Of a DNA stretch of 64,000 bases, positions 9,811 to 41,378 are shown in pieces. The notes below the pieces were generated by a model. It was given only the letters and a program-made list of their open reading frames with translations, searched no databases and was not told the origin of the DNA. Within the stretch, counting starts at the first letter, position 1; each line of letters opens with the position of its first letter. The stretch comes from Hydrogenophilales bacterium 28-61-23 (GTDB lineage Bacteria; Pseudomonadota; Gammaproteobacteria; Burkholderiales; Thiobacillaceae): contig NCGJ01000013.1 of the NCBI GenBank assembly GCA_002281555.1, positions 23,493 to 87,492 on the forward strand. Direction: 5' to 3'. A program made the translations under genes and the position numbers.

Positions 9811-9840
9811 GCGGGGCGGGGCGCTGCTCGGCCCCGACCG

Positions 9841-10368
9841 TTATTTCGGCTGGGCGCTTATTTCGCTGTCCAGTGCGTCGAAAGCGCGGTCGCGGTGGTG
9901 CAAGGTGACGGCTTTTTTCAGTTTGCCGACCCGCTCTTCCTGATACGACTGGAGTCTTTCCTTGGGAATGCAGACCCGCGCGTAGGCGGTCGACTGCTTT
10001 TCCTTGTATTCGATGTTTTCGTAGATAACCGCGCTTTCCACGAATACGGGCAGGTTTTCATCCTGCTTGAAACGTTCGACCAGGGCGCGCTCGGTCGGGT
10101 CGGATTTGTCGCGGAAGTTTTCGTAGACCACGATTTCCAGCGCTTTGTTGAGCCGGATGACCATCTGCTTGCGGGCGTCGGCCTTGGAGATTTCGACCGC
10201 TTCGAGCCCGCCGCGCGCGAAACCGGAATCGCAGATGTGATTGCGGGTTTGCTGGTAATACCAGCCGGGAGCGCCTTCGACCCGAACCGATTGCATGTGC
10301 TCGAGATGCTGCTCGAACATGAAGGAGATGAATGTTTTTACCAGTGCAAATGCAAGCGATTCGAGCAT
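9841..10368 (-). CDS. hypothetical protein, weak LPP20-like features; last gene of the lipoprotein cluster
   Basis: The ORF is 175 aa with ATG at 10368, preceded by AGGAGG at a 5-nt spacing. It contains GAPGWYYQQ...SGFARGG...ADARKQMVIRLNKALE, which resembles the P-x-W...G-x-G...A...A pattern of the neighbouring LPP20-like genes. I see no clear lipobox. Confidence 0.5.
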   Translation of the reverse strand: MLESLAFALVKTFISFMFEQHLEHMQSVRVEGAPGWYYQQTRNHICDSGFARGGLEAVEISKADARKQMVIRLNKALEIVVYENFRDKSDPTERALVERFKQDENLPVFVESAVIYENIEYKEKQSTAYARVCIPKERLQSYQEERVGKLKKAVTLHHRDRAFDALDSEISAQPK

Positions 10369-10383
10369 GTGGCCTCCTGAAAG

Positions 10384-12054
10384 CTATCTGGCGGGAATAA
10401 CCCGCAGCGGTTTGATATTGGCGTAGCTGGGCATGGCCATGCCGATGCTGGCGTTGATATAGGTGGGGTCGGCGATGACATAACGCTCTCCCTGCCAATC
10501 GACGCTCGACCAGTTGCCATGCGGGTTGGGAACGGCAACCGCCGTGGTCATGTGGCCGGGGTAATGCAGGCCTACCGTCTTCAGGCCGACCAGTTCCCGC
10601 ACCAGCCAGGAGAACAGGGCGGAGCGGTCTTCGCAGTCCGAGTAGGGGTAGTAGAGCGCTTCCTCGACGAAGAAGTATTTTTCATAGCCGAACTGATCCT
10701 GATCGGTCTTGTAGTCGAAACCTTTCTGCACGAAGGCGAGCAGGAAGTTGACCGACTCTTCCGGCGACATGCCCTGCATGCGCTGGCGCAGCACCTGCAA
10801 CAGCGGTTCGCGCGCGGAGGGACTGGCCTGGGTGGAGAAGTAAAGGTCGAAATCCATTTGCGGAAAGCCGGCCATGTATTGCACCAACCTGCGGTCGTAG
10901 CCGAGTTTGACTTGCACCGGACGCCCTTGGTATTCGAACTTGACGGTTTTCTCCGTCGGTTCCGCTTTGGTGAAGCCGGTCGCCGCGCCTTTCAGGTCGA
11001 GCGATTGCAGGGGAGCGGGATAGTTGGATTCATAGGTGCTGAAGGTACGCAGGCCTTTGCCTCGATCGGCGTTGAGCAGCGCGTAGTAAGTGCGTTCGGC
11101 ATTGCCCTTGCCCAGCTTGATGAAGCTGACGGCATAGACCGGCTGTTTTACGGCGACAAAGAGGTAGACCTCCTGGCCGCTGTAGCCGAGGCGAACATCG
11201 ACGCCGGCCTTGACCAGGCAATGCCACAGCAGCAGGTTCTGTTCGGTCGGGCGGTCGGGCAGTATCGCCTTGGCGGCTTCCTGCCATAGCGTGGCGTGGC
11301 CCCAGTCATCCAGACGCAGGTCGCGGCGTGCCTTGGCGATGGCCTGCAAGGTCGGCGCGATTCGGGTCACGCTCATTTTGTCCCAGTAGGCGGCAAGTCC
11401 GGCCGGGTCGATCTTGTTGGCGCGGATGTTCCGCCACTGCGGGTCGTAAGGCAGGCTGACGACGTTGCCGTAGAAGCTGAGTTCCAGGCTGTCGGCGGCC
11501 AATTCCGCCGGCTTGGCGGGTATCGGGAACGGCACTGGCGGGACGCTGGGCGCAACCACCACGGGTGGTTTGGGCGCCGGAATTTCGGCTGGCTTGGGAA
11601 TGTCCAGCGGTTTGGGCATTTCCGCCGGCTTCGGAGGCTGGGCCGGCTTGGGCTGCTCTACCGGTTTCGGTGTCGCCGACGGCTTCGGGGCTTCAAACGG
11701 CTTCGGCACTTCCAGAGGTTTGGGCGTCGCTCTCGGGGGTTCCCTGGGCGGCGTTTTCACGACAACAGGCGCTTGCGGGATCACCTTCGGCTTCGGCCGC
11801 GGGTCGCGGACTTTGCCCTGGAATACCTGGAATTCTTGCCATTGCTTCTTCAGATAACCGGAGAACTGCTGATCCTGTTCACTGCGATAAACCTCGAATT
11901 GCTGTTTGGTTTCAGCCACGCCCTGGCTCTGGCCGCGTAGCCAGTCCTGGTAACTTTCCCCGCCAATCGCGGGAGAAGCGGCGGAAATCGTCAGCACCGC
12001 ACAACCGAACGTAGCCAGACCTCGGCTGAGCTGGGTATTTCGGATTTCCGCCAT
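10384..12054 (-). CDS. exported proline-rich protein with C-terminal transglutaminase-like cysteine-protease domain
   Basis: The ORF is 556 aa with a signal-like N-terminus (ATFGCAVLTISAASPAIG). Residues ~84-182 are x-x-PKP repeats. The C-terminal part shows a Cys/His/Asp pattern (YSDCEDRSALF ... HYPGHMTTAV ... VIADPTY) typical of the transglutaminase core. Confidence 0.7.
   Translation of the reverse strand: MAEIRNTQLSRGLATFGCAVLTISAASPAIGGESYQDWLRGQSQGVAETKQQFEVYRSEQDQQFSGYLKKQWQEFQVFQGKVRDPRPKPKVIPQAPVVVKTPPREPPRATPKPLEVPKPFEAPKPSATPKPVEQPKPAQPPKPAEMPKPLDIPKPAEIPAPKPPVVVAPSVPPVPFPIPAKPAELAADSLELSFYGNVVSLPYDPQWRNIRANKIDPAGLAAYWDKMSVTRIAPTLQAIAKARRDLRLDDWGHATLWQEAAKAILPDRPTEQNLLLWHCLVKAGVDVRLGYSGQEVYLFVAVKQPVYAVSFIKLGKGNAERTYYALLNADRGKGLRTFSTYESNYPAPLQSLDLKGAATGFTKAEPTEKTVKFEYQGRPVQVKLGYDRRLVQYMAGFPQMDFDLYFSTQASPSAREPLLQVLRQRMQGMSPEESVNFLLAFVQKGFDYKTDQDQFGYEKYFFVEEALYYPYSDCEDRSALFSWLVRELVGLKTVGLHYPGHMTTAVAVPNPHGNWSSVDWQGERYVIADPTYINASIGMAMPSYANIKPLRVIPAR
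11509..11805 (-). repeat. coding low-complexity PKP repeat (TonB-like Pro-rich spacer)
   Basis: The translation is RPKPKVIPQAPVVVKTPPREPPRATPKPLEVPKPFEAPKPSATPKPVEQPKPAQPPKPAEMPKPLDIPKPAEIPAPKPPVVV... The coordinates come from residues 84-182 of the 556-aa ORF. Confidence 0.8.
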
Positions 12055-12064
12055 CTTGCACTCC

Positions 12065-12670
12065 TTACTGCATGGCCTTCATTTTGGCGATTTCTTCGGC
12101 CAGCTCTTCCTGGCCCTTCTTGGCCTTGAATTGCTGCCACAGCGCCTTGTCGTTGTTCATGCTGGTCTTCAGCACTTTCTCGGTAGCCTCTTTGGTGACG
12201 GAAGGATCGAGGCCGACCAGAACGTAGATGGAACCGTTCGGGCTGGTGGCGCTACGGAAAACGCGCGAACCGACGATGGTTTCGGCGGTGATCAGCTTGG
12301 ACACGCTGGTGTTGACCTTGTCCACGGTCTCGGAAGCGGCGGCGCCGGTCGTCTCGACATAGGACTTGATCATGTTGGTGACGTGCACCTTCATCTGCTG
12401 GGCCAGGTTGACGCGCGCGGCGGCGGCGGCCTGGTCTTTCATGAATGCGGTGCCGGCGGCGGATTTTTCATAAGAACCGACCGCGGAAACGGCAACCCCT
12501 TCAACCGGAGCATCGCAAATCCAGAGCGGCGCGGCCTGATTCGGCGAGTCCGGGAAGACGCATTCGGCGATCTTCGCGGGTTCTGGTTTAACGGCGTCCT
12601 TACCGCCAAAGCAACCCGTGAGCGCGACAGCCATAAGGGAAGACAACAATACGATACGTTTTGTGCTCAT
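12065..12670 (-). CDS. LPP20-family lipoprotein
   Basis: The start was re-picked at ATG 12670, which gives MSTKRIVLLSSLMAVALTGC (lipobox LTGC). The body contains APLWICDAPVEGVAVSAVGSYEKSAAG...AAAAARVNLAQQM, which is LPP20-like. Confidence 0.65.
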   Translation of the reverse strand: MSTKRIVLLSSLMAVALTGCFGGKDAVKPEPAKIAECVFPDSPNQAAPLWICDAPVEGVAVSAVGSYEKSAAGTAFMKDQAAAAARVNLAQQMKVHVTNMIKSYVETTGAAASETVDKVNTSVSKLITAETIVGSRVFRSATSPNGSIYVLVGLDPSVTKEATEKVLKTSMNNDKALWQQFKAKKGQEELAEEIAKMKAMQ

Positions 12671-12784
12671 TTTGATCTCCATTGAAAAAACCGAAAAATT
12701 ACCGCGACTTTCATAAGTGTCGAATCCCCGAAAAAACAAGATGACTACAACAGCCGGGGCGCTCTGTTACTGCTCTCTTCTCTA

Positions 12785-13189
12785 CTACTTAGCTGGTACC
12801 AGCCAAATCCATAAGACGCCGGATTGAGGATCTTTCCACTTTTCCTTCACCGTCGCCTTGACCTCCTTCTGCTTGACCGTCTCCTGGATTGCCTTGTCGG
12901 AAACCGAGGTGGTGCGATCGCCTTGCGTGTGCATTTCAGTCAGGTGCTCGCTGTCGATAATGACGCCGTAACGTTTGGCATATTCGTCTCGAGCCCGCGT
13001 GATGGCCAACTCTTCCTGTGCCTGAGCGCCCCTGACATGAAACATGGCCGAAGCCGCCACGCCCTCACCCGGGTTATTGATCCAGGCGGGGGGGGCGGAT
13101 GCGTCAGGTTTGGCGTGGCGCTCCGGGAGCATGCTGCAGGCGCTCAACAGCGACAATGACAGGATCAGGATGGTGCGATACGGGCCCAT
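12785..13189 (-). CDS. small lipoprotein, LPP20-like
   Basis: The ORF is 134 aa. It begins MGPYRTILILSLSLLSAC (lipobox) and contains PPAWINNPGEGVAASAMFHVRGAQAQEELAITRARDEYAKRYG. Confidence 0.55.
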   Translation of the reverse strand: MGPYRTILILSLSLLSACSMLPERHAKPDASAPPAWINNPGEGVAASAMFHVRGAQAQEELAITRARDEYAKRYGVIIDSEHLTEMHTQGDRTTSVSDKAIQETVKQKEVKATVKEKWKDPQSGVLWIWLVPAK

Positions 13190-13208
13190 TTCGAAAATTC
13201 CTTAGTGG

Positions 13209-14240
13209 CTAAAACTGCAATGGTTTCAAAACTTTTTGCCAGAGCGACCCCTTGCGGGTCACTTCAACCAGATCGCCGAGCAGCACGCCCTGAGCCTTGC
13301 GATCGTCGTCCGCAATAATCCACGATTCCATTGCCGTGACGTTGCCGAAGACAACCCCTTCGACGACGGGCACCTTGTCATAAACGGTTTTATTGGTAAT
13401 CGAGTGCAAACTGGGTTTTTGATTAAAAACCGTGACCTTGCTCCCAGCGGTCACGCCCTGGTCGGCACCGATGGATAGTTTGAATATCGACTTGCTTCCC
13501 TTGTCGCGTCTGCCAAGGATGTAACCCTTGTGGGAAAACTGCTCGAGGAACTCGTCGCCGACCTGAGACAAGGCCTTCTGAGCCGCCTCCCGCACCATCG
13601 ACACCGCGAGATCCCTATTGCTGGCTTCTTCGGCCTTGTGAGAATTGGCGCCACGGCCATTCAACGTTTTGATCAGGCGCAAACTTGGCACCTCGTAAAC
13701 CCGCAATACAACGTTCACGCTGGCACTGTGTGAATAACTGGCGGGCGTGGTGACCGTCTTGCCCTTCTTGTTGGTCTGGCTGGTGGCTGGCTTGATTTCC
13801 AGATCGTATTCCGCCTGGGTGATCGCCGGCTTGACCGCGTAGTTGGCTACGGAAGGCCCGTCGTAGCCGGCGACGCCGACCGCCTCGGCCAGTTTCAACT
13901 CGTCCCTGAGTTGATTGGCAAGGTTGCGATCCACCACTTCGATGCCGTTTGTGCCCAGCAACTGTTCGATTTCCCGCATCAAAAAGCTGCCGGCCTGGGC
14001 ATGCCGGGCCTTGCTCAGATTGTTGTCTTCCATATCGAATACCACGACCTTGGCGCGCCCCTGCCTGGCAAGGTCGGCCTCGGTCGGCATGCGGGCGGCG
14101 GAAGCAAGCGTGGCCTCATTGGTGTATTCAGACAGCGAACCGCCCGTGCCTGCGCAACCGCTCAAAACTACCAGACCCGATAGCGCTAGCGCGCGGACAT
14201 GCCGCCCGCACCTGGTTCTTTCCCGCATAATTTTCCCCAT
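13209..14240 (-). CDS. lipoprotein with CsgG/LpoB/FlgO-like (TolB-N-like) domain and C-terminal beta domain
   Basis: The lipobox is ALALSGLVVLSGC. The stretch KVVVFDMEDNN...AGSFLMREIEQLLGTNGIEVVDRNLANQLRDELKLAE...SVNVVLRVYEVPSLRLIKT follows the pattern of CsgG/LpoB-type lipoproteins. The C-terminus is GYILGRRDKGSKSIFKLSIGADQGVTAGSKVTVF...GDLVEV. The start is ambiguous (GTG 14246, ATG 14240, ATG 14228). Confidence 0.55.
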   Translation of the reverse strand: MGKIMRERTRCGRHVRALALSGLVVLSGCAGTGGSLSEYTNEATLASAARMPTEADLARQGRAKVVVFDMEDNNLSKARHAQAGSFLMREIEQLLGTNGIEVVDRNLANQLRDELKLAEAVGVAGYDGPSVANYAVKPAITQAEYDLEIKPATSQTNKKGKTVTTPASYSHSASVNVVLRVYEVPSLRLIKTLNGRGANSHKAEEASNRDLAVSMVREAAQKALSQVGDEFLEQFSHKGYILGRRDKGSKSIFKLSIGADQGVTAGSKVTVFNQKPSLHSITNKTVYDKVPVVEGVVFGNVTAMESWIIADDDRKAQGVLLGDLVEVTRKGSLWQKVLKPLQF

Positions 14241-14255
14241 GGACACATCAACCGA

Positions 14256-15236
14256 TTAATCAGTAAACCCCAAACCCTTGATCGGACCGACATCCCGCAG
14301 TGCCGCACCCAGTTTTTGAGTGGCGCTTTGCCGGGCGCCCGCGTAGTCGTATGAGGAAGACCCGGATACCTCGAAATCGCGACTGGTCACTGCGCGCCCG
14401 TGATCGTCCTGCACGCTCAGCGTGACTTTAAGTTTAACCAACTTGCTGCCATAGATGGCATCGGAGCGGCTGCTGCTGGCGATTGCGAGGACATTGCCCC
14501 TGCCAGAAGCGGTGTTTTCCGTGCGAATGCCATTCTCGTTGAGGAAAGCGGTGATTGCCGCGGCAAGATCGCCATCGCTCGAACCGGCCTGAACCCGGAA
14601 TACCAAATCCGTGGCGGCTTTCTGAGCCTGCTGTTGCAGCGACTCCAGACGACTCAGACGCTCCGCCGATGCGGCACCCGGCTCAAGGCCCGTCAGTAGC
14701 TGAGCATGGCCGGTCGCTTTTTCCAGATTGGGCTGCAAGCGGCGCAGCGCCACGAATTTTTCCAGCGGCGTTTTTTTGCCGAGCTCCGCGGCCGCCGGCT
14801 GGATGAGGCTATCGAGATTGCCCAGCTTCTGCTTGATATCGCGGATAAATGCCTGGCGATCGACTTTGACCAAAGCAAAAAATCCGTTCCCCGATTGAGC
14901 GGTTTTTTCCACCACGAAATTGTTGAATTCCGTTTTTTGCACTTCTTCGGAAATACGGGTGCGCGCCTTGCGATCGACCTTGTTGTTGTCGACGCTGATC
15001 TGGCTTTCGAGTTGCGCGGAAATACTGACCCGCAGCTTGGCGGCGATATCCTTCAACGCGGCGCGCTTCGCCGTGTCGAGATCCGGGCCCTCGCCCACAC
15101 CCCAGAACCATTCCCTGCTGTCGGCCGGTGTCGACAACACCCAGGCCGGGGCCGCGCTGGCCTGTTTCTTCGGCAACAAGCTGTCACAGCCTATGAGCGG
15201 AACGAAAAGTGTCAATAAAATCAATAAGTTACGCAT
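14256..15236 (-). CDS. long LPP20-like lipoprotein (paralogue B)
   Basis: The ORF is 326 aa. It begins MRNLLILLTLFVPLIGC (lipobox) and contains APAWVLSTPADSREWFWGVGEGPDLDTAKRAALKDIAAKLRVSI. Its three-part architecture matches 18554..19549. Its start overlaps the cyclase stop by 8 nt. Confidence 0.6.
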   Translation of the reverse strand: MRNLLILLTLFVPLIGCDSLLPKKQASAAPAWVLSTPADSREWFWGVGEGPDLDTAKRAALKDIAAKLRVSISAQLESQISVDNNKVDRKARTRISEEVQKTEFNNFVVEKTAQSGNGFFALVKVDRQAFIRDIKQKLGNLDSLIQPAAAELGKKTPLEKFVALRRLQPNLEKATGHAQLLTGLEPGAASAERLSRLESLQQQAQKAATDLVFRVQAGSSDGDLAAAITAFLNENGIRTENTASGRGNVLAIASSSRSDAIYGSKLVKLKVTLSVQDDHGRAVTSRDFEVSGSSSYDYAGARQSATQKLGAALRDVGPIKGLGFTD

Positions 15237-17202
15237 TTTTCATGTTTTCCATTGGGTACAGCGAAGCCGGTTGAGTCGATTCGGCGGATCGGGATTCCAG
15301 GATTTTTCCGGTCAAGGGATCGGCCACCATTTTCCAGCACAACTCGTAGACGGGTTGCGCCTGCTCCTTGCCCGCGACCTGCACCTCGCCCAGCGCGCGG
15401 AAAGGTAAAACATCTTTCGCGCGCTGGAATACGGATTCGCCGGCCACGATGTCCACGCCCAATTTTTTAGTCGCGCTTTCAAAACGGGAAGCCAGATTCA
15501 CCACATCGCCGATCGCCGTGTAGTTGAACCGGATCGATGAACCCAGATTGCCGACGATGGCGGGCCCGCAATTGATGCCGATGCCGGTTTTCAGCGGCGC
15601 CGCGCCGACCCGGCCCATCGCCTGGTTGATTCTGAGTTGGGCATACTGCATGGCGATGGCCGCGCGACAGGCGGCTATGGCGTGATCCGGCTGATCCAGC
15701 GGGGCGTTGAACAGGGCCATGATCGCGTCGCCGATGTATTTGTCGAGCGTTCCGCCCTGGTCGAAGATCGCTTCGGTCATCGGCTGAAAATAATCCGCCA
15801 TGATTTCCGCCAGACGCTCTGCCGAGACGCCCTCGGACATCGAGGTAAAACCTCGAATGTCAGAAAACAGCACGGTAATTTCCTTCTTTTCCCCGCCCAG
15901 TTTGAGTTGTTCTGGATTCTCGACAATCCGGCTGACCAGACTGGGCGGCAGGTAGGTTGAAAACGCCGTGCGCAGTTTTTCGGCGTGCTTCTTGGAGTGC
16001 GACAACAAGCTGGTTTCAATCAGCATCGCCGAAGCGGCAAGCGCGGTCAGCACATAGGCGCTTTCCAGCCACACGCCGGCCTGGACATAGAGCAGGAGCC
16101 CTGCGGAATAGGCGACGACGGCCAAACCGGCATAGAGCGCGGCGCGCAGCCATATCCGACGAATACGCATGATGGCGAGGGCGGCGGCCAAAGCCAGAAA
16201 AATGACGCCCGCCATCGAGACAACGCCCAGTTCCTGCAATCCATGCCCGCCCAGCACATTGGCCATGAAGGTCGCGTGCATCAGCGGGCCGGGATACTGC
16301 CCAAGCGGCGTCGCGCGGATGTCGGAAACGCCGGCCTCGGTGATGCCGAACAACACCACTTTGCCTTTCAGGCTGGCCGGGCTGAAACCGGGCGCGAACA
16401 AATCGGCAAATGAGATCGTGTGAAAGCTCGACTCGGGGTAAAAGTTCAAGCGGGTGAACCCGCGCGCGTCGAGATGTACCAGGTCGTCGCCAATAGTCAG
16501 CCGCGCAGCGGCCGAAATCGGCCCATTGCCGCGTTGCAGACGGGCTTGGCTATCCAGAAAGACCTGCAGCGTCTGCACGCCCAGGCTGGGTTGCACCATG
16601 CCAAGCAAGACAAAGCCGGCGGGGTAATGGCGAAACCGTTCATCCTTGTCCGCCAAGGTGTTCAGGGAACCCAATGCGGCTTGTCCGGCAAGGATGTCCG
16701 GAATCGAGAGTTCCACTTCGTCCTTGACCTCGACCAGACCCACATTATGGCTATCGGTCAGGCTCGAATTGGCCAGCAGCGCCATGCCGGCGGCATCGGG
16801 TGTCACCGGACGAATGCCGTTCATCTGGTAACCGCCGATGACGGTCGTCCGCGCGAGCATTTCTCCCAGCGCCCGGTCTTCCGCCGAGTCTGTCGGTTCG
16901 GAGAACACCATATCCAGCGCAATGACCTTGGCCTCGCGACACTTGTCGATGGCGGCCGCCATCCTGAGTCGCGACCAGGGCCAGCGGCCGAAGCTTTTGA
17001 CCGCCTTGTGGTCGACGGCGATGAAGACGATGTCCCGGTTCGGCGAATGCGGATTAAAGCGATAGTAGGTATCGCTGACCGCGCTGGCCAATGCGGCGAC
17101 CGGACCGGGTTGCCAATAAAACAACAGCGTCAGCAATAGCCCCAGCGTGGCGATTGCGCCGGTAAGGTTCAGGTATTCGCTGCGTGCAAGAAGCTGGGGC
17201 AT
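15229..17202 (-). CDS. CHASE2 sensor domain-containing class III adenylate/guanylate cyclase
   Basis: It has a periplasmic CHASE2 signature (IVFIAVDHKAVKSFGRWPWSRLRMAAAIDKCREAKVIALDMVFSEPT). Three TM helices follow. The cyclase domain reads ITVLFSDIRGFTSMSE...DKYIGDAIMALFNAP...GINCGPAIVGNLGS..FNYTAIGDVVNLASRFE. The track start 17211 is TTG, so ATG 17202 was chosen. Confidence 0.9.
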   Translation of the reverse strand: MPQLLARSEYLNLTGAIATLGLLLTLLFYWQPGPVAALASAVSDTYYRFNPHSPNRDIVFIAVDHKAVKSFGRWPWSRLRMAAAIDKCREAKVIALDMVFSEPTDSAEDRALGEMLARTTVIGGYQMNGIRPVTPDAAGMALLANSSLTDSHNVGLVEVKDEVELSIPDILAGQAALGSLNTLADKDERFRHYPAGFVLLGMVQPSLGVQTLQVFLDSQARLQRGNGPISAAARLTIGDDLVHLDARGFTRLNFYPESSFHTISFADLFAPGFSPASLKGKVVLFGITEAGVSDIRATPLGQYPGPLMHATFMANVLGGHGLQELGVVSMAGVIFLALAAALAIMRIRRIWLRAALYAGLAVVAYSAGLLLYVQAGVWLESAYVLTALAASAMLIETSLLSHSKKHAEKLRTAFSTYLPPSLVSRIVENPEQLKLGGEKKEITVLFSDIRGFTSMSEGVSAERLAEIMADYFQPMTEAIFDQGGTLDKYIGDAIMALFNAPLDQPDHAIAACRAAIAMQYAQLRINQAMGRVGAAPLKTGIGINCGPAIVGNLGSSIRFNYTAIGDVVNLASRFESATKKLGVDIVAGESVFQRAKDVLPFRALGEVQVAGKEQAQPVYELCWKMVADPLTGKILESRSAESTQPASLYPMENMKNA

Positions 17203-17278
17203 TCCGCGCAAGTCACTCGTCTATGGCCGATGGACAAGGGCTCGGCATCAGCGCAAGCCTTGTGGCGCACTCAACCTG

Positions 17279-18025
17279 TTATTGTTTGCCTTGCCAGTCG
17301 ATCAGGGACTTCATCGCCTTGGCGCTCTCGCCGCTGATATTGCGCTCCACGGCAACCCGGCCGGTCGTGACCAATTCCTTGCCCGCTTCCAGTACCAGGT
17401 TTTCCACATAATCGACAAACTCGCGTTCCACCTGGGCCTTGTACTGGTCGAATGCCGCCTGTTCGCCCGCGATGGCCTCGGCTTTTTTGCGCACGAGATC
17501 CTCGAACTCATCCCTCTCGGATTGCTGGGCGACCGGCTTTTCACGATACAACTCGACCGGGCCCTGCGTGCTGGCGATATCGACAGAGCCCTGGTCCAGA
17601 ACCACGCTGACGCTGTCTTTATCGTCTTCCACCAGGAAACGCGTGCCTTTTACGCCGATAACCGACAACCGTGTTTTGATCTCGACTCCGGCTGCGGCCT
17701 TGCTCTTGCGTACCTCAAACAGCGCCTGGCCTTTGTCCAAAGCGGTTTTTCCCACGCCGTTGAAGGCGGCCACGCTGAACTTGTCGATTGCAACCGAATA
17801 ACGGCCATCGTTGAGCAGGGCGCGGCCTTCGAAGGTGTGCACCTCATCGCCCGCGCAAAGCGCTCGGGGTAGGGCGCCCGGACTGGTTTTCAACACCTTT
17901 CCGCTCGGTTTGATGCTGACCTGGCCTTCAAATGCCACCATCTTGGCCACCGAGGCGCAACTGGCAAAAACATGGCCGGAAACGCAACATGCCAACGATA
18001 CAAACAAGAGTTTCACTAAACGCAT
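17279..18025 (-). CDS. FecR-domain periplasmic protein (partner of the CHASE2 cyclase)
   Basis: ATG 18025 gives the signal peptide MRLVKLLFVSLACCVSGHVFA. The FecR pattern is present (VAFEGQVSIKP...GDEVHTFEGRALL...RLSVIGVKGTRFLVE). There is no N-terminal anti-sigma domain. Confidence 0.8.
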   Translation of the reverse strand: MRLVKLLFVSLACCVSGHVFASCASVAKMVAFEGQVSIKPSGKVLKTSPGALPRALCAGDEVHTFEGRALLNDGRYSVAIDKFSVAAFNGVGKTALDKGQALFEVRKSKAAAGVEIKTRLSVIGVKGTRFLVEDDKDSVSVVLDQGSVDIASTQGPVELYREKPVAQQSERDEFEDLVRKKAEAIAGEQAAFDQYKAQVEREFVDYVENLVLEAGKELVTTGRVAVERNISGESAKAMKSLIDWQGKQ

Positions 18026-18164
18026 GGATGGCACCCCCGAGAGCTTGTCGTGGAAATTCTAAACCACGCAAGCGGTGTGGCTTTAACTGTAATCCGGCCT
18101 CTATCCGTCTGCGCTTCCCAACCGGGATGCAAGGGTTGCGAAGCCCATGCTGGTTTTATGCGGG

Positions 18165-18479
18165 CTAATTGCCTGCGTTGTTACATCGAGTCATGCACTT
18201 GTTGCAGTAGTAATCACGGGCGCAAGTCGTGGTCTGGCCTGGCCGCAGCGAGCTTCTTAACGATTCGATGCAACCGTTCATGCAGGCTTTCTGCTCGCGC
18301 TGGTTCTCAATCGTCGATGACAAGGTTTCAGCCATATTCCTGGTGCTTTCGTCGTCCGTCGTTTGTTTAAGCAACTCAAGAAACATCTGGGTATTGCCGC
18401 CATCGCGGGCGCAGGCAATATTGGGCAGCAACGAAAAACAAAGGGCTATCAACAAGGCAATCATATAGTTCGATTTCAT
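18165..18479 (-). CDS. small secreted Cys-rich protein
   Basis: ATG 18479 lies 6 nt after GAGGAG. The signal peptide is MKSNYMIALLIALCFSLLPNIACA. The mature part is ~80 aa, with 6 Cys in the last ~45 aa (CMNGC...C...CNKC...C). The gene is visibly more AT-rich than its neighbours. Confidence 0.5.
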   Translation of the reverse strand: MKSNYMIALLIALCFSLLPNIACARDGGNTQMFLELLKQTTDDESTRNMAETLSSTIENQREQKACMNGCIESLRSSLRPGQTTTCARDYYCNKCMTRCNNAGN

Positions 18480-18553
18480 GGTCATCTCCTCTCAAGATAA
18501 AAACGCGTGAAACTGCAAAATATGAAACAGCTGCTATCGCATTACAGCTTGGT

Positions 18554-19549
18554 TCAACTCGTGGCGAATTCGATGATCGTGGTTTTGAGTTCACGCTTGA
18601 ACAATTTCTCGGCCTCGATCAGCACACGCGAGCGAGCGGTCCGCGCGCTTTGCCCGGCGGCCTTCAGCGGCCAGGTTTTACTGCCGCGAACACGCCCGGA
18701 CGCTTTCTCGATCAGCGAGATTTCAAGCGTCCCGCGCATCCAGTTCCAGTTATCGCGCCGGCCCAAATCGTCGAGATTCAATTTGCCGACCAGAACGAAA
18801 TCCGCATTCGCTCCGCCTTGCGCCAGAAACCCGGCGGCGGACAGTCCGCCTTTGAGGATGGCGGCAAACTCCGCGACACCGCCATCGTCCGCGACTTCGG
18901 GCAATACCTTGATGGCCTTGATGGCGTCATCGAGCTGAGCGCGTATTTCGACCTGCGCTATGGGCGCTTCGACGCCGCGCCCGGTCTGGTCGATGGCCTT
19001 GAGGGAAGCCTGAAATCCATCGCGATTGACCGCCGATTCCATCGCGCGCGCCAGCGCGCCAATTTTGAGCAGGGGGTCGGCGGCCGCTTTGGCCTTGTCG
19101 AATTCCAGTTGCACCGCCGCGTCGATCTTGCCGATTTCATCTTGCAGACTCGCGGCAGCCTGTGAACGCGACAACACGGCCAGGGCATGGAAATCCTTGG
19201 ATTCTGGATCGCGCCAGACATCGGCGATATTGATGCCGCTGATGACCTTGTCGGTCGTGGTGGATACATCCTGAGTCGAGGTTTTGCTGACCTGCTCCTT
19301 GCCGCCGGTTTTCGTTACCGTGGTATTGGTTCCGGTTGCCACCTCGACACGCACTTCAAAGATCGTGACCAGATCTCCGCGCGCCCGATCCTGAGCCTCG
19401 TTCGCCGTCGAGCCGACGCCACGACCGATCAGATAGGAAGAATGGGGATATTTCTTGGGCGCGTTGCCGACCCAGTCGGGCGGCGCGGCAAGGGCAAGGC
19501 TGTTTCCCGCCAGCGCCACGACAAACATCATCAGCTTCAAGTACCGCAT
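18554..19549 (-). CDS. long LPP20-like exported protein (paralogue A)
   Basis: The ORF is 331 aa with signal peptide MRYLKLMMFVVALAGNSLALA. It contains PPDWVGNAPKKYPHSSYLIGRGVGSTANEAQDRARGDLVTIFEVRV, then a helical middle part, then a C-terminal domain similar in layout to 14256..15236. Confidence 0.6.
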   Translation of the reverse strand: MRYLKLMMFVVALAGNSLALAAPPDWVGNAPKKYPHSSYLIGRGVGSTANEAQDRARGDLVTIFEVRVEVATGTNTTVTKTGGKEQVSKTSTQDVSTTTDKVISGINIADVWRDPESKDFHALAVLSRSQAAASLQDEIGKIDAAVQLEFDKAKAAADPLLKIGALARAMESAVNRDGFQASLKAIDQTGRGVEAPIAQVEIRAQLDDAIKAIKVLPEVADDGGVAEFAAILKGGLSAAGFLAQGGANADFVLVGKLNLDDLGRRDNWNWMRGTLEISLIEKASGRVRGSKTWPLKAAGQSARTARSRVLIEAEKLFKRELKTTIIEFATS

Positions 19550-19595
19550 GGCTCAATCTCCGTGATTTGGTGTTGTCAGCGCGAGCTGGGGGCAA

Positions 19596-20990
19596 TCACA
19601 AGTAGTAGTCGGAAAGGAAGGTCTTGCGCGCAGCGTCGACCCGAACGCCTTTGAACTCGCGCGTGGACAACAGATTGCCGTTGACGCCGTAATAGGACAC
19701 TTTCAGGTCATGCGTCCCGGGCGGCAGAGCCAGCCGCGCCAACTGGATGTTGCCAGGCAATAACGACCAGCTGCGCGTGTCGGCTCGCTCCGTCAAGGTC
19801 GCCGTAATGTCCATGATCGTGCCCATGGACATCCTCAGCATGCTGGCCAGGTCGCCGGTGTTCTGCTTTGCCGCCTGCTCACTCCTTTTCTTTGCATCGG
19901 CGGTAAGCTTGTTCTTGGCAACCAGGCGAACCAGCGCCCGGGTCTGTATTCCAGGCAGCCTGGCTTCGAGGCTTTTTTTGGCCAGGCCGTTAACATCTTC
20001 CGCGACCTCGGAATTCGTCGACTGGCCGCCGCTGGAGAGCTCGAAGCGCATAACGGGCAGCGGCCGTTCGACAAACTTTGGCAGCGCGATGCGCAGCAGG
20101 GAGGTTCCTTGCCCCGGCACGGGATTGGGCACCTGAATCAGGTTTTCGGCCAATGAAGGGCCCAGCCCATTGTGCAGAAAGAAAACCACCTCGCCGTTCG
20201 CTTCCGCCAAGGCGGCTGTCGCATCGGGCGTCGAGTCGGCTTTCGACCGGCTTCGTTTGGATGATTTGCTTCGGCTCGGCGTTTTGCCTTCGACGCGGGC
20301 CAGATCGGCCCGCAACGCCGAGGGCGCGCCACAGTTGGTGAACTTGCTTTGGCTTTGATAGCCCTCCAAAGCCTTGGTGAATTCGATGCGCGCGGAATCC
20401 GGCTCGCCGACAGCCTCGTAAATCATGCCATTCAGATAACGAACAAAAGCGCCGGAAATAAACTTGGCTTCCGGATACTTTTCCGTAATCAAGCGTTGCT
20501 TGATGTCGAACTGCCTGGCTTCCACCGCCGCCGCGTCAAAGTCGTTCAACTGAAGGTAGTTGAGCGCTTTGAAACCATAAAGCAGCAATTGCTCGTTGGC
20601 GTCGCCGGTATAGGCTTTGACGCCTTCATTGATCAGGGCGCTGCCAGCCTGCTCAGCCACACTGATCGCTTCCAGTTTGTCGATCAGGCTCTTGGCCGTG
20701 TCGAATTCAGTATTCGACTTTGAGTAATCGGCCTGAAGGCGTAGCAGCATGCCGCGATTCAGATACTTCAGCGTTTCATCCGTTTTCGCCAGGTCTGTCG
20801 CATGGAATTGATCCAGCGCCTTGATGGCGCCGGGAATGTTTCGTATCGCGGCTTGCTGTTCGATCGAACGGAAACCTTCGCTGTGGGTGGCGCATCCTTG
20901 CATGCCAAGCACGGCGACCAGCGCCAGCAGGCCGACAAAAAGCCCGCCCGCGCGCGCCGGTTGCCGACGATCAGAACCGAAGTTTTGCAT
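19596..20990 (-). CDS. TPR-like lipoprotein, COG3014-like
   Basis: The ORF is 464 aa with lipobox VLGMQGC. It contains LKYLNRGMLLRLQADYSKSNTEFDTA...LLLYGFKALNYLQLNDFDAAAVEARQFD... This recalls the uncharacterised COG3014 lipoproteins that I remember as neighbours of lpoB/ycfL-type genes. That is memory only and needs an HMM check. The start overlaps the lpoB stop by 20 nt. Confidence 0.5.
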   Translation of the reverse strand: MQNFGSDRRQPARAGGLFVGLLALVAVLGMQGCATHSEGFRSIEQQAAIRNIPGAIKALDQFHATDLAKTDETLKYLNRGMLLRLQADYSKSNTEFDTAKSLIDKLEAISVAEQAGSALINEGVKAYTGDANEQLLLYGFKALNYLQLNDFDAAAVEARQFDIKQRLITEKYPEAKFISGAFVRYLNGMIYEAVGEPDSARIEFTKALEGYQSQSKFTNCGAPSALRADLARVEGKTPSRSKSSKRSRSKADSTPDATAALAEANGEVVFFLHNGLGPSLAENLIQVPNPVPGQGTSLLRIALPKFVERPLPVMRFELSSGGQSTNSEVAEDVNGLAKKSLEARLPGIQTRALVRLVAKNKLTADAKKRSEQAAKQNTGDLASMLRMSMGTIMDITATLTERADTRSWSLLPGNIQLARLALPPGTHDLKVSYYGVNGNLLSTREFKGVRVDAARKTFLSDYYL

Positions 20991-21576
20991 TCTGGACTTC
21001 TTTCTTCAGTTTCTTCTGACCGGTCCATACCTTTTCGTTGTTGGCCAGGCTGACCAGCGTCAGGTCAACCTGATAGAAGCGGACTTGCTCGCGGCCGGCG
21101 GCATCGATGATGGTGTTGATCGACCCCATCAACATGTAATCGGCGCCGGTCTCCTGCCCCATTGCCTTGCGTGTTTCTTCGCGCACATTGGTGTCCATAT
21201 CCAAGCGTTCACCGCGCAGGCCCTCGCGCTCATTCTTCGAGGCGACGACCCGGACGTCGCCGGAGTTGACGAACGCACGCTCCAGGTCGTTCACAAACGT
21301 GCGCGTGTTGATGTGTTCGTGCGACAGATTCCGGATGCTGCCCACGATGACCACAGGTTCATTCTTGGAGTTTTTCAGATGCCGCTTGAGCCAACCGCCG
21401 GAAAGCGAATCGCGGATCATCTCTTCCGAAACCAGTCTCGAATCCGTGTCGTTCCAGGCTCCGGACAAGTCTTTCACTTCTTCGACACCGACCCGCTTCA
21501 CCTGAGTTGCGCACCCCGTCAAACCTGCCGCGGACAGGGCGGCTACCAAAACCAAGACATGATATTTTTTTGACAT
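20971..21576 (-). CDS. lpoB: penicillin-binding protein activator LpoB-like lipoprotein
   Basis: The ORF is 201 aa with lipobox AAGLTGC. The sequence DLSGAWNDTDSRLVSEEMIRDSL...PVVIVGSIRNLSHEHINTRTFVNDLERAFVNSGDVRVVA...GADYMLMGSINTIID...YQVDLTLVSLANNEKVW matches the short LpoB (YcfM/COG3417) family as I remember it. Confidence 0.75.
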   Translation of the reverse strand: MSKKYHVLVLVAALSAAGLTGCATQVKRVGVEEVKDLSGAWNDTDSRLVSEEMIRDSLSGGWLKRHLKNSKNEPVVIVGSIRNLSHEHINTRTFVNDLERAFVNSGDVRVVASKNEREGLRGERLDMDTNVREETRKAMGQETGADYMLMGSINTIIDAAGREQVRFYQVDLTLVSLANNEKVWTGQKKLKKEVQNAKLRF

Positions 21577-21826: not shown

Positions 21827-21853
21827 AAAAAAACAGGCGACCGAAGTCGCCTG
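21827..21853 (-). terminator. Rho-independent terminator downstream of glgP
   Basis: The minus strand reads caggcgac-ttcg-gtcgcctg followed by ttttttt. Coordinates are anchored on ORF 21767..22006. Confidence 0.75.
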
Positions 21854-22038
21854 TATAAGCTGCTATCGAATCTGGGCGGCGGAGTCGTTGCCGTTTTAGC
21901 GGCTTACGAACCCGGCGTACCACTTGCGGGGCAGCGGTGTCCTGCTCAAGGGACGCTTCGAATTGTCGGCGCGTCGGTGGCAGAAAACATTCGCGTATGC
22001 GCGTAAGGGGATCACCTACAACGCGCGACCGAGGGCGC

Positions 22039-39647: not shown

Positions 39648-39767
39648 AAGAGCCGGGCAAAGAAAACGTCAGAATTTTCATGCACATATCCGCTATGAAT
39701 ATTCATATATGGCTACGACAATCAATTCGCCTTGTCGGTTGCCAGTTCATCGTCGGGATCGCCTAAC

Positions 39768-41378
39768 ATGACCAAAATCGTTACGAACTCTATTCAGAGC
39801 AAGATTGTTCTGACCATTTCGCTGATATTCGTGGCGGTACTGGCTACGTCGACCTGGTTGACCGCAAGCAAGGAACGTTCGCTGGCCCAGGAAATCGCCC
39901 TCGATAAGGCGAAGGTCATGTCGCAGTCTTATTTCGATGGCATCAACACCATGATGCTGACCGGAACGATGGATCAGCACGAATCCTTACGCAAAAAGTA
40001 TCTATCGACGCCGGGTGTGCGCGAGATACGCGTGGTGCATGCGCCGGGCGCGCTGGATGGCGTAACCACGAATCCGGCAAAGCCACGGGACATTCTCGAT
40101 GAGCGCGCAATCAAGGGTGAGGTGGTGAGCGAATTTGGCGAGGATGAAAATGGCCGCTATGTCACCGTGCTGACGCCATTGCCCGCCAGCGCGAACCACA
40201 TGGGCACCAATTGCCTGAACTGCCATCAAGTTCCACAGGGGACGATTCTGGGCGCGGTGCGTATGTCCTACTCGTTGAAGCAACTGGACGGCGAGTTCTG
40301 GAACAACATGCTGGTCGTGGCCGGTTTGAACCTGTTGTTGTCGTTTTTGGGTATTGCGCTGGTCGTCGGGCTGTTGCGGCGCATCGTTATCCTGCCGTTG
40401 TCGAAAATGCGCGCATCGATGCATTCCATCGAACAAAACTCCGATTTGACCCAGCGCCTGGAAATTTCGACCAAGGATGAAGTGGCCTCGCTGGCCCACG
40501 CAATCAACGGCATGCTGGACAAGTTTGGCTCCAGCCTGGGCTTGGTCAACGAGACATCCACCCGCCTGTCGAGCGCGGCGGACCGTATCGCCTCAGCCTC
40601 GACTCAAACCGCCGAGGCCGCCAGCCAGCAGCTGCAAGAAGCCGCCTCCACCGAACGCTCGATCATGGATCTCAAAGGCATCGCGGCGGAAGCCGGCAGC
40701 AGCGCGGCGCGGACCGCGGAAGCGTCAGTCGATGCCGACCGGGAGGCCGGCAAAACCACGCAAACGACGCGTGAAGCGATCGCGGGCATCTTGTCCCTGG
40801 TCACTGAAATACAGCAGGCCGCCGAAGTCATCGAAGCGCTGGACCAGCGCAGCCAGAATGTCAGCGATGTGCTCGATGTCATCAAAGGCATTGCCGAACA
40901 AACCAATCTGCTTGCGCTCAATGCCGCGATCGAGGCCGCGCGTGCCGGCGAGATGGGGCGCGGTTTCGCCGTGGTGGCGGATGAAGTCCGCAAGCTGGCC
41001 AACATGTCGCATGAATCCACGCGCAGCATCGAGGCTATCGTCATGCAACTACGTCAGGAGGCGCAGCGCGCGGTTCAGGTCATGCATGCCGCGCGCGAGA
41101 CCGCTTCGCAACATAGCCAGGCGCTGGGCGATTCCATGGGCGGCATCGATCAGATCGTGGTGCGTGTCAAAGACATTCGCGACCTCAACGCGCAGATGGA
41201 ACGCTCGGTACGGACTCAGGCCGATTTGACGGAAAACGTCGATCAACGGGTTGCGACCATCGGCCGGATCGCGCAACGCACCGCCGATGAAGCCGTCGGC
41301 ACGCGCGGAGTCAGTGAGGAGCTGGTGGCTTTGGCGCGTGAATTGAACGAACTGGTGAGTCATTTCCGCTTGCGTTGA
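39768..41378 (+). CDS. methyl-accepting chemotaxis protein with periplasmic CxxCH (heme c-type) sensor domain
   Basis: The layout is TM1 ([19 protein letters not shown]), a ~150-aa periplasmic domain ending in [25 protein letters not shown] (CLNCH at 40212-40226), TM2, a HAMP domain, and an MCP signalling domain ([35 protein letters not shown]). The track start 39732 is TTG, so ATG 39768 was chosen. Confidence 0.9.

Follow-up and report, generated by a model that had tools for sequence, protein, structure and literature searches.

The cluster and its boundaries

The window analysed here is a stretch of 64,000 nt from contig NCGJ01000013.1 of the metagenome-assembled genome (MAG) Hydrogenophilales bacterium 28-61-23. 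Its positions 9841-21576 contain twelve genes on the minus strand, which are numbered g1 to g12 in the order of transcription (Table 1; all coordinates refer to the window). A sequence-only reading had taken them for one exported scaffold and signalling system, and the structure, relatives and possible function of this cluster are the subject of the present analysis. The co-directional arrangement with short spacers and overlaps was confirmed, and the twelve open reading frames (ORFs) coincide with genes that had been called independently on two public contigs of this organism. The genes g1 and g2 overlap by 20 nt (20971-20990) and g6 and g7 by 8 nt (15229-15236), and the remaining spacers comprise 9-130 nt with the longest ORFs and at most about 139 nt if the shorter published starts are used. 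The same 20-nt overlap of g1 and g2 is found in stand-alone g1-g3 triads of unrelated genomes (L091 and L093; such labels denote loci of the comparison described below).

A strong intrinsic-terminator-like hairpin is located between glgP and g1, and from its sequence it is predicted to be the upstream boundary of cluster transcription. The likely downstream boundary is a GC-rich hairpin that separates the end of g12 from that of a convergent plus-strand ORF. Within g1-g12 a consensus scan, which was weak (19 sites versus 16 expected), revealed no convincing terminator, and the promoter/terminator scan gave no usable operon boundaries inside the cluster. The flanks consist of housekeeping genes, i.e., hemE, dut, and coaBC on one side and glgP and the genes for a U32 peptidase and aspartokinase on the other. 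The G+C content of the cluster is 0.565-0.605 per 2-kb window between 10000 and 22000, compared to 0.61-0.64 in the flanks, and this lower value may reflect horizontal acquisition.

Export signals could be recognised in the translations of eleven of the twelve products, with g6 counted as a membrane protein and g12 as the exception, as had been noticed before. Judging from general fractions of exported proteins, this number is far beyond chance. Lipoboxes are present in g1, g2, g7, g8, g9, and g10 and are conserved among the orthologues, and the signal peptides of g3, g4, g5, and g11 resemble those of signal peptidase I substrates. The view that the cluster products are largely outer-membrane lipoproteins is supported by these predicted signals.

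Table 1. Features of the cluster and its surroundings, with positions in the 64,000-nt window.
Feature	Position	Strand	Evidence and remarks
g1, LpoB-family outer-membrane lipoprotein, 201 aa, lipobox LTGC	20971-21576	-	Pfam LpoB 7.5e-38
g2, lipoprotein with TPR-like region, 464 aa	19596-20990	-	conserved G-C lipobox; no Pfam family
g3, long LPP20 protein, 331 aa	18554-19549	-	Pfam LPP20 7.8e-18; signal peptide present, lipobox absent in this genome
g4, small secreted Cys-rich protein, 104 aa, 8 Cys	18165-18479	-	found in one locus group only
g5, secreted FecR-domain protein, 248 aa	17279-18025	-	Pfam FecR 4.3e-9
g5, C-terminal helical motif DEFEDLVRKKAEAIAGEQAAFDQYKAQVEREFVDY	17408-17512	-	homologous to the g11 N-terminal helix
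g6, multi-pass membrane CHASE2 sensor fused to class III cyclase	15229-17202	-	Pfam CHASE2 and Guanylate_cyc
g7, long LPP20 lipoprotein, 326 aa, LIGC-D	14256-15236	-	Pfam LPP20 4.3e-7
g8, FlgT-like lipoprotein, 339 aa, LSGC	13209-14228	-	AlphaFold2 (AF2) model and Foldseek
g9, short LPP20-like lipoprotein, 134 aa, LSAC	12785-13189	-	hhalign versus LPP20 families, probability 98-98.6
g10, short Lpp20-type lipoprotein, 201 aa, LTGC, invariant Cys37/Cys52	12065-12670	-	Pfam LPP20 9.4e-7
g11, secreted enzyme candidate, 556 aa	10384-12054	-	AF2 model, Foldseek
g11, N-terminal helical motif, residues 33-70, ESYQDWLRGQSQGVAETKQQFEVYRSEQDQQFSGYLKK	11845-11958	-	common to the cluster FecR proteins
g11, PKP-repeat proline-rich linker, residues 80-186	11497-11817	-	translation; predicted disordered/extended
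g11, transglutaminase-like catalytic core	10387-10668	-	invariant Cys474, His501, Asp529; Cys474 codon 10633-10635
g12, protein of no recognised fold, 175 aa	9841-10368	-	extremely conserved; two invariant Cys
Intrinsic-terminator-like hairpin and T-run	21833-21854	-	9-bp stem, 6 GC pairs, T7 tail; downstream of glgP
GC-rich hairpin	9817-9836		between the ends of g12 and the plus-strand Tat-signal ORF
ORF convergent with g12, 241 aa	9085-9810	+	Tat-like signal (RRNLLKLL); weak FecR match, E 0.0048
Methyl-accepting chemotaxis gene	39732-41378	+	MCPsignal and HAMP
Second FecR-domain ORF, 447 aa	62348-63691	+	cluster FecR profile, E 8e-10; near the window end

Modular composition in related genomes

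For the comparison 111 loci were fetched, the six-frame ORFs were labelled with iterated family hidden Markov models (HMMs), and near-duplicates were removed. The complete set of twelve genes occurs in this organism only among the loci compared. By gene neighbourhood, the locus is predicted to consist of two modules. Module A is the g1-g3 operon, and module B, g5-g12, is a conserved unit in this betaproteobacterial lineage and is itself composite.

The order g5-g12 is kept in about six non-redundant betaproteobacterial loci (L006/7, L008, L009, L010/L095, L011). The earlier suggestion that the genes should co-occur in this order in other genomes therefore holds for g5-g12, but not for the order of all twelve genes. 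In L088 the FecR-cyclase pair is convergent to a g7-g8 block. L099 and L102 contain g8, then FecR and g7 (opposite strand), and then g10-g9-g11-g12, and no cyclase. The linkage of the module B genes thus outlasts rearrangement.

An LPP20 gene of any type was found at all 26 non-redundant g8 loci and at 73 of 86 g11 loci. The latter represent the best 80 of at least 587 and are biased toward close relatives. The long g7 type is present at 24 g8 loci, where it lies directly upstream of g8, and at 17 g11 loci. The short g10 type was found at 22 g8 loci and is the best conserved partner of g11, which it adjoins at 67 of the 86 loci. For the g9 type the numbers are 11 g8 loci and 41 g11 loci, for FecR 10 and 21, and for the cyclase as well as for g12 7 and 8. 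Genes of the g2 and LpoB families occur at only one g8 locus, namely, in this window, and at six and five g11 loci, respectively. The two anchor genes meet less often, g8 being present at 12 of the 86 g11 loci and g11 at 11 of the 26 g8 loci, and g12 accompanies g11 where g8 is also present. Across the loci g10 (61-92% identity) and g12 (69-88%) show a far stronger conservation than g8 (31-58%) and g11 (38-70%).

Two cores extend far beyond this lineage. The pair of a short LPP20 protein and the transglutaminase-like enzyme g11 was found in at least 587 species, and the g11 family comprises at least 516 proteins and extends over at least 587 species genomes from Beta- and Gammaproteobacteria, Campylobacterota, Desulfobacterota, Bacteroidota, Spirochaetales, and others. 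The second core is composed of a long LPP20 protein, the FlgT-like g8, and a short LPP20 protein, and its anchor family g8 forms 645 clusters at 50% identity in a full HMMER search. The view that g8 is a very rare family was rejected, because the 17 hits of a word-indexed search were an index artefact.

The triad g1-g3 shows a different distribution. Its first product covers 146 of the 147 positions of the Pfam family LpoB (PF13036), yet it does not reach the equivalog level of the LpoB that acts on PBP1B (90.1 bits with TIGR02722 versus a cut-off of 110.55), and it matches the Escherichia coli LpoB structures only with an E value of 0.58. By these scores g1 is assigned to the LpoB family and is predicted not to be an LpoB orthologue. 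The description of g2 as a TPR lipoprotein was correct with respect to the lipobox, whereas the TPR region is recognised only by a match to TPR_2 below the Pfam cut-off (2.4e-4), and none of its at least 303 homologues has a name. In the third product an LPP20/SHS2 domain at the N-terminus is combined with an LptE/PelC-like domain at the C-terminus, and this protein is a full-length paralogue of g7 (hhalign probability 100, 305 columns). The closest g2 relatives (69%, 59%, and 50% identity) belong to triads that stand by themselves amid unrelated genes (L091, L092, L093). Judged from this occurrence, g1-g3 is an autonomous, self-contained operon, which is widespread alone and in this genome merely lies upstream of g5-g12. 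The small protein g4 has no match in Pfam or NCBIfam and is regarded as an orphan, present in this organism only among the loci compared.

These distributions bear on the earlier proposal that all twelve genes form one dedicated periplasmic/outer-membrane scaffold, the state of which is read or set by a cyclic nucleotide. Such a system would agree with the uniform direction of the twelve genes, their short spacers and the two overlaps, with one upstream terminator and none that is clear internally, and with the eleven exported products. It would also agree with the triad being found beside the LPP20/g11 pair, in differing arrangements, in L047, L051, L055, L062, and L073. However, the full set is confined to this organism, the triad is autonomous, and g4 is an orphan. 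Furthermore, the closest g5-g12 relatives (L008, L006) lack g1 and g2, and the cyclase is missing from most g8 and g11 loci, so that a single twelve-gene system is very unlikely.

Several related loci have additional features. A variant cluster downstream of dnaE in Gallionellaceae/Nitrosomonadales (L013, L018, L019, L021, L023) encodes LPP20, a 393-aa protein, an outer-membrane beta-barrel, LPP20, FecR, a g9-like protein, and g11, and contains neither the cyclase nor g8. In L019 and L021 it includes an FGE-sulfatase-domain protein between the g9-like protein and g11. In L003, a metagenome contig of 47 kb, g7-g8-LPP20 adjoins a Mu-like transposase gene (rve, Mu-transpos_C) and a Peptidase_S24 repressor-like gene, and a prophage may thus border the cluster. 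In L014, L020, L031, L047, L103, L106, L108, L109, and L094, genes beside the same modules encode large caspase-like proteins (Peptidase_C14) that contain WD40 or Sel1 repeats. In many gammaproteobacteria (L033, L042, L052, L054, L058, L063, L066, L067, L087, and other loci) the short LPP20/g11 pair lies directly downstream of the ccmABCEFGH-I operon for cytochrome c maturation and a DsbA-like gene. The ccm operon and the DsbA-like gene were not accepted as parts of the system and were classified as conserved housekeeping synteny. This adjacency may be plain synteny or may hint at a thiol/disulfide link, g10 having two invariant Cys residues.

Lipoproteins, enzyme candidate, and cyclase

The Pfam search confirmed the LpoB, FecR, CHASE2, and Guanylate_cyc assignments of the sequence-only reading as well as LPP20 for g3, g7, and g10. 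In contrast, Transglut_core, CsgG, and GNA1162 were not matched, and the corresponding calls for g8 and g11 were rescued only by the predicted folds. The profile of the g3/g7 type (A4) matches the LPP20 structure 4kzs (1.9e-12) with its N-terminal domain, and LptE (0.0018) and PelC (0.084) with its C-terminal domain. Of the two proteins that had been described as shorter LPP20-like lipoproteins, g10 was recognised by Pfam, and its profile (A3) aligns end to end with Helicobacter pylori Lpp20 (5ok8, 4e-8), whereas g9, which has no Pfam or NCBIfam match, was recognised by hhalign only. The lipobox of g7 is followed by Asp at position +2, which is Glu in the three closest orthologues and is not acidic in more distant ones. 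If the E. coli sorting rule applied, g7 of that subclade could stay in the inner membrane. A general retention signal was rejected, because the residue is acidic in the four closest loci only.

No Pfam or NCBIfam model, including FlgT_N and FlgT_M as well as FlgT_C, matches g8, and the PDB sequence/profile search gave nothing meaningful. The AF2 model (predicted local distance difference test, pLDDT, of 81) has an N-terminal domain with an LptE/CsgG/PelC-type fold, which is followed by a beta-rich C-terminal domain. Foldseek aligned it with FlgT (3w1e) with an E value of 3.7e-14 over 302 columns, in agreement with the three-domain fold of FlgT, although a template modelling (TM) score of only about 0.3 indicates that the domain orientations differ. 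It also found the FlgT chain of the Vibrio LPHT ring (8z5n) and, further, HpaA, CsgG, LptE, GNA1162, and PelC. FlgT_C is weakly matched by 4 of 24 g8 relatives (best 8e-4) and FlgT_M by one. The earlier label of a CsgG/LpoB fold was therefore right, but FlgT-like is the better description. However, g8 does not match the Pfam model CsgG, and neither curli genes nor any sign of a membrane channel are present at the cluster. Taken together, it is supported that g3, g7, g9, and g10 (LPP20/FlgP-type) and g8 (FlgT-like) have folds that are used in the flagellar H-ring and basal disk.

This raises the question whether the cluster encodes accessories of the flagellar motor, of the H-ring or basal-disk type, away from flagellar loci. 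The structural matches of g8, the weak FlgT_C and FlgT_M matches of its relatives, and the chemoreceptor gene in the window, which suggests that the organism is chemotactic and may be motile, are in line with this possibility. In addition, co-purification with FapH and FlgP has been reported for Lpp20 and HP1454 of H. pylori (PMC11756786). However, no flagellar Pfam family was found in the Pfam-annotated neighbourhoods or among the window ORFs tested, and FlgT, in contrast to g8, has not been described as a lipoprotein. Among the PDB entries, the LPP20 profiles recognise Lpp20 but none of the FlgP chains. The LPP20/g11 pair was also found in Bacteroidota MAGs (L051, L053, L059, L076-L079, L085), once together with the triad. 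To our knowledge, the Bacteroidota are a phylum without flagella. A flagellar function of the cluster is therefore highly improbable. In the vicinity of the chemoreceptor gene lie genes for a cbb3 oxidase (ccoN, FixG-like) and a P-type ATPase.

The enzyme candidate g11 consists of a signal peptide, the predicted docking helix, a disordered linker rich in PKP, an alpha/beta domain, and a C-terminal transglutaminase-like core. The PKP repeats had been noticed before and are visible in the translation, and within the linker most of residues 80-134 and 165-186 have a pLDDT below 50. Foldseek relates the core to LapG (4fgp/4fgq) with a probability of 0.99, E values of 0.025-0.05, and a TM score, relative to the target, of 0.45-0.49. 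Other matches are PNGase, XPC/Rad4, vasohibin, and the putative protease 3kd4 of Parabacteroides. Cys474, His501, and Asp529 are invariant in 30 of 30 homologues (alignment A1). In the model the Cys is situated at the N-terminus of a helix and the His and Asp on or after adjacent strands, with a core pLDDT of 81-94. The former designation as transglutaminase-like is thus borne out by the fold and the triad, and g11 is, according to the model, a member of the transglutaminase-like cysteine protease superfamily with a Cys-His-Asp triad. No Pfam or NCBIfam match was obtained at an E value of 0.01 or better, and the PDB sequence/profile search yielded nothing meaningful.

The companion g12 has a hydrophobic, uncharged, and invariant N-terminus, and no match was found in Pfam, NCBIfam, or the PDB. 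It had been called a small LPP20-like protein, an assignment that was dropped after two profile comparisons were not significant.

A new finding is a helical motif of 35 residues that is common to g5 and g11. When 8,458 ORFs were searched with an HMM built from residues 33-80 of g11, the matches comprised 88 homologues of g11, 20 FecR proteins out of the 25 encoded in the clusters, and a single further ORF. Reversed or shuffled controls gave zero matches. In the FecR proteins the match is always near residues 170-210, and the reciprocal search with the g5 motif recovered g11 (E 9e-7). This common helix suggests that both proteins use a common docking site, and it offers a precise, mutable handle for experiments.

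The FecR protein g5, which has a conserved Cys right after the predicted signal-peptide cleavage site of the orthologues, is encoded directly upstream of g6, and this pair is kept in L005, L006, L008-L011, and L088. The second FecR-domain ORF lies near the end of the window. The ORF convergent with g12 is restricted to this organism and seems to be outside the conserved modules. It was confirmed that the cluster includes both a CHASE2 cyclase and a protein with a transglutaminase fold. In g6, CHASE2 (PF05226) was detected with 1.8e-41 and Guanylate_cyc (PF00211) with 1.9e-21. An alignment with Cya2 (2w01/6fht) and Pseudomonas aeruginosa CyaB (3r5g) shows that g6 contains FSDIRGFT, that DKYIGD has a Lys where the guanylate cyclase Cya2 carries Glu, and that NYTAIGD has a Thr as in CyaB. 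The stretch NYTAIGDVVNLASR contains Thr, Asn, and Arg, with the Asn/Arg pair intact. Because the Lys/Thr specificity residues are those of CyaB, g6 is a predicted adenylate cyclase, the product of which should be cyclic AMP (cAMP) and not cGMP, so that only the first half of the proposed cAMP/cGMP output was retained. The g6 proteins of the cluster loci are 52-78% identical, and therefore g6 is considered an orthologue that co-travels with the cluster. In view of its restricted occurrence, the cyclase is predicted to be a lineage-specific accessory and not a core part.

Further enzymes are encoded close to the modules in other genomes. MltC-like lytic transglycosylases (SLT and MltC_N) are found within 1.5 kb of g11, g8, or the short LPP20 gene in eight loci (L028, L029, L041, L069, L073, L081, L094, L104). 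In L069 the gene lies between g9 and g11, and in L094 it follows g7-g8-g10 in the place of g11. A domain shared by the SLT protein of L094 and g11 was searched for, and none was found. The recurrence of these enzymes points to a cell-wall role of the modules.

It could also be argued that the lipoproteins are individual regulators or adaptors of cell-wall enzymes, as LpoB is for PBP1B, without any platform, that g11 is a peptidoglycan peptidase or amidase, and that the cyclase monitors wall damage. The membership of g1 in the LpoB family, the LptE/PelC/LpoB-type domains of g3, g7, and g8, and the MltC-like enzymes, which even substitute for g11 in L094, fit this explanation. The proline-rich linker of g11 may likewise recall periplasm-spanning proteins. 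HP0018 has been reported to interact and co-purify with MltD and AmiA (PMC11394524). On the other hand, the cluster contains no gene for a penicillin-binding protein (PBP) or any other wall-synthesis gene, g1 does not reach the equivalog cut-off for LpoB and hardly matches the LpoB of E. coli, and the fold search with g11 returned no transglutaminase-fold enzyme that acts on peptidoglycan. A multi-subunit assembly would better account for the strict association of g8 with three to four LPP20 paralogues, and independent regulators thus appear doubtful as an explanation of the cluster.

Proposed function and comparison with known systems

The explanation that we favour, with a probability of roughly 0.55, is that the locus is a mosaic of envelope modules and not one twelve-gene machine, and that it combines a lipoprotein platform, a docked enzyme, and a FecR-cyclase readout. 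The adaptor set of module B, g7-g10, would be tethered to the inner face of the outer membrane and would assemble as an anchored platform. The enzyme candidate g11 would dock on this platform via its N-terminal helix, and the linker of about 100 residues would give its catalytic domain access to a bond, either peptide or isopeptide, in the zone of the cell wall. The substrate might be peptidoglycan or an envelope protein attached to it. Because g5 has the same helix at its C-terminus, it would read the same docking site and pass the state on to the CHASE2 domain of g6, with a change of cytoplasmic cAMP synthesis as the presumed consequence in this direction of signalling. While we infer a scaffold, an enzyme-recruiting envelope/cell-wall module is suggested at least as strongly, because the transglutaminase-fold protein and MltC-like lytic transglycosylases are recurrent partners.

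Several points weigh against this explanation. The triad adjoins the LPP20/g11 pair in the five distant loci mentioned above, in varied arrangements, and a loose functional tie of the triad to the LPP20/g11 modules is possible. The MltC-like neighbour is present in only about eight of about 110 loci and is absent from this window. The LPP20 profiles match Lpp20 and no FlgP chains that are present in the PDB, and a ring-forming beta-hairpin insert marks FlgP-type oligomers (PMC12222027). The Foldseek E values of the g11 core are weak (0.02-0.05), though the probability is 0.99, and the Transglut_core and BTLCP HMMs miss g11. The protein g12 has no clear export signal, which leaves its compartment uncertain. 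Lastly, the neighbourhood counts are based on six-frame ORFs, the contigs are often truncated, and the g11 loci are the biased sample described above.

A bolder version assumes that g7-g10 build a non-flagellar ring or lattice beneath the outer membrane, which would be a stand-alone relative of the H-ring and basal disk. This structure would dock g11 and g5 by one helix and report the state of the envelope or cell wall to the cytoplasm as cAMP. We regard this version as speculative and unlikely. If it were true, flagellar motors could have recruited their FlgT-/FlgP-type parts from a pool of such assemblies, and the modules, once characterised, would provide a concrete test of the origin of these parts.

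No description of the combination of genes in the cluster or of its modules was found in the literature searched, in agreement with the earlier statement that no described system combines these families. The two cores, i.e., LPP20 plus transglutaminase-like enzyme and long LPP20 plus FlgT-like plus short LPP20, appear to be undescribed. For none of the families of g2, g8, g11, and g12 did the sources contain a name or a Pfam or NCBIfam model, though g8 and g11 are widespread. The cluster represents unstudied envelope modules that are built from folds used by flagellar motors in their outer rings. They are linked to an enzyme candidate whose catalytic triad is intact and, in part of the lineages, to a sensor predicted to produce cAMP. 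Their characterisation could reveal a new way for Gram-negative bacteria to anchor enzymes beneath the outer membrane and to sense the state of the envelope.

Two sub-modules match arrangements that have already been described, the triad by architecture only. Lipoprotein operons similar to the triad have been described in Campylobacter and Helicobacter (PMC3100323, PMC11394524). In the Campylobacter jejuni genes cj0089-cj0090-cj0091 and the Helicobacter genes HP0018/HP1456 (Lpp20)/HP1457, a TPR lipoprotein of about 450-470 aa likewise adjoins an LpoB-family protein of about 200 aa, an LPP20-type protein is included, and the operon is free-standing. Cj0089 and Cj0091 comprise 453 aa and 207 aa, respectively (PMC3100323), compared to 464 aa for g2 and 201 aa for g1. 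The resemblance is one of architecture, the gene order differs from that of cj0089-cj0091, and the third gene encodes a two-domain LPP20 protein of 331 aa in the triad and the 122-aa Cj0090 in C. jejuni.

The second known pairing is that of a FecR protein with a CHASE2 adenylate cyclase. In Sinorhizobium meliloti the secreted FecR protein SMc02177 is encoded beside the CHASE2 adenylate cyclase CyaD1, with cAMP as the output (PMC5498481), and the Burkholderia BiofilmReg system combines a FecR/LysM protein with a CHASE2 histidine kinase (PMC5192318). Both share with g5/g6 that a secreted FecR protein is encoded beside a CHASE2 membrane sensor. In contrast to CyaD1/SMc02177, the g5/g6 pair is embedded in a lipoprotein/enzyme cluster, g5 has an extra C-terminal helix in common with g11, and no Clr/CRP-type regulator or target gene was identified at the locus.

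LapG resembles g11 in being periplasmic, in its transglutaminase-like fold with a Cys-His-Asp triad, and in being tied to a nucleotide second-messenger system. However, g11 has no LapD, LapA, or BTLCP Pfam match and no LapD- or LapA-like neighbours, it is three times larger, and it has the docking helix, the proline-rich linker, and an extra domain. Moreover, its messenger would be cAMP from a sensor cyclase instead of the cyclic di-GMP that is sensed by LapD.

The lipoproteins LptE, PelC, and CsgG have the same small alpha/beta fold as parts of g3, g7, and g8, and some proteins with this fold form rings beneath the outer membrane, but the cluster contains no curli, Pel, or Lpt partner genes. 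The closest structural parallels are the Vibrio H-ring (FlgT, FlgP, FlgO) and the Campylobacter basal disk (FlgP), where FlgT/FlgP/FlgO-type parts form concentric rings in Vibrio (bioRxiv 10.64898/2025.12.02.691832; PMC12222027). As in these structures, the FlgT-like g8 stands beside the LPP20/SHS2 proteins g7, g9, and g10, and the proteins are lipid-anchored at the inner face of the outer membrane, so that, by analogy, ring formation by g7-g10 is possible. The cluster differs from them in the absence of nearby flagellar genes, in the lipidation of g8, which matches none of the FlgT Pfam models, in LPP20 proteins that resemble Lpp20 rather than FlgP, and in the occurrence of part of the module in Bacteroidota. 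A further difference is that the lipoproteins of the cluster are accompanied by an enzyme of transglutaminase fold, by a FecR protein, and by a cyclase.

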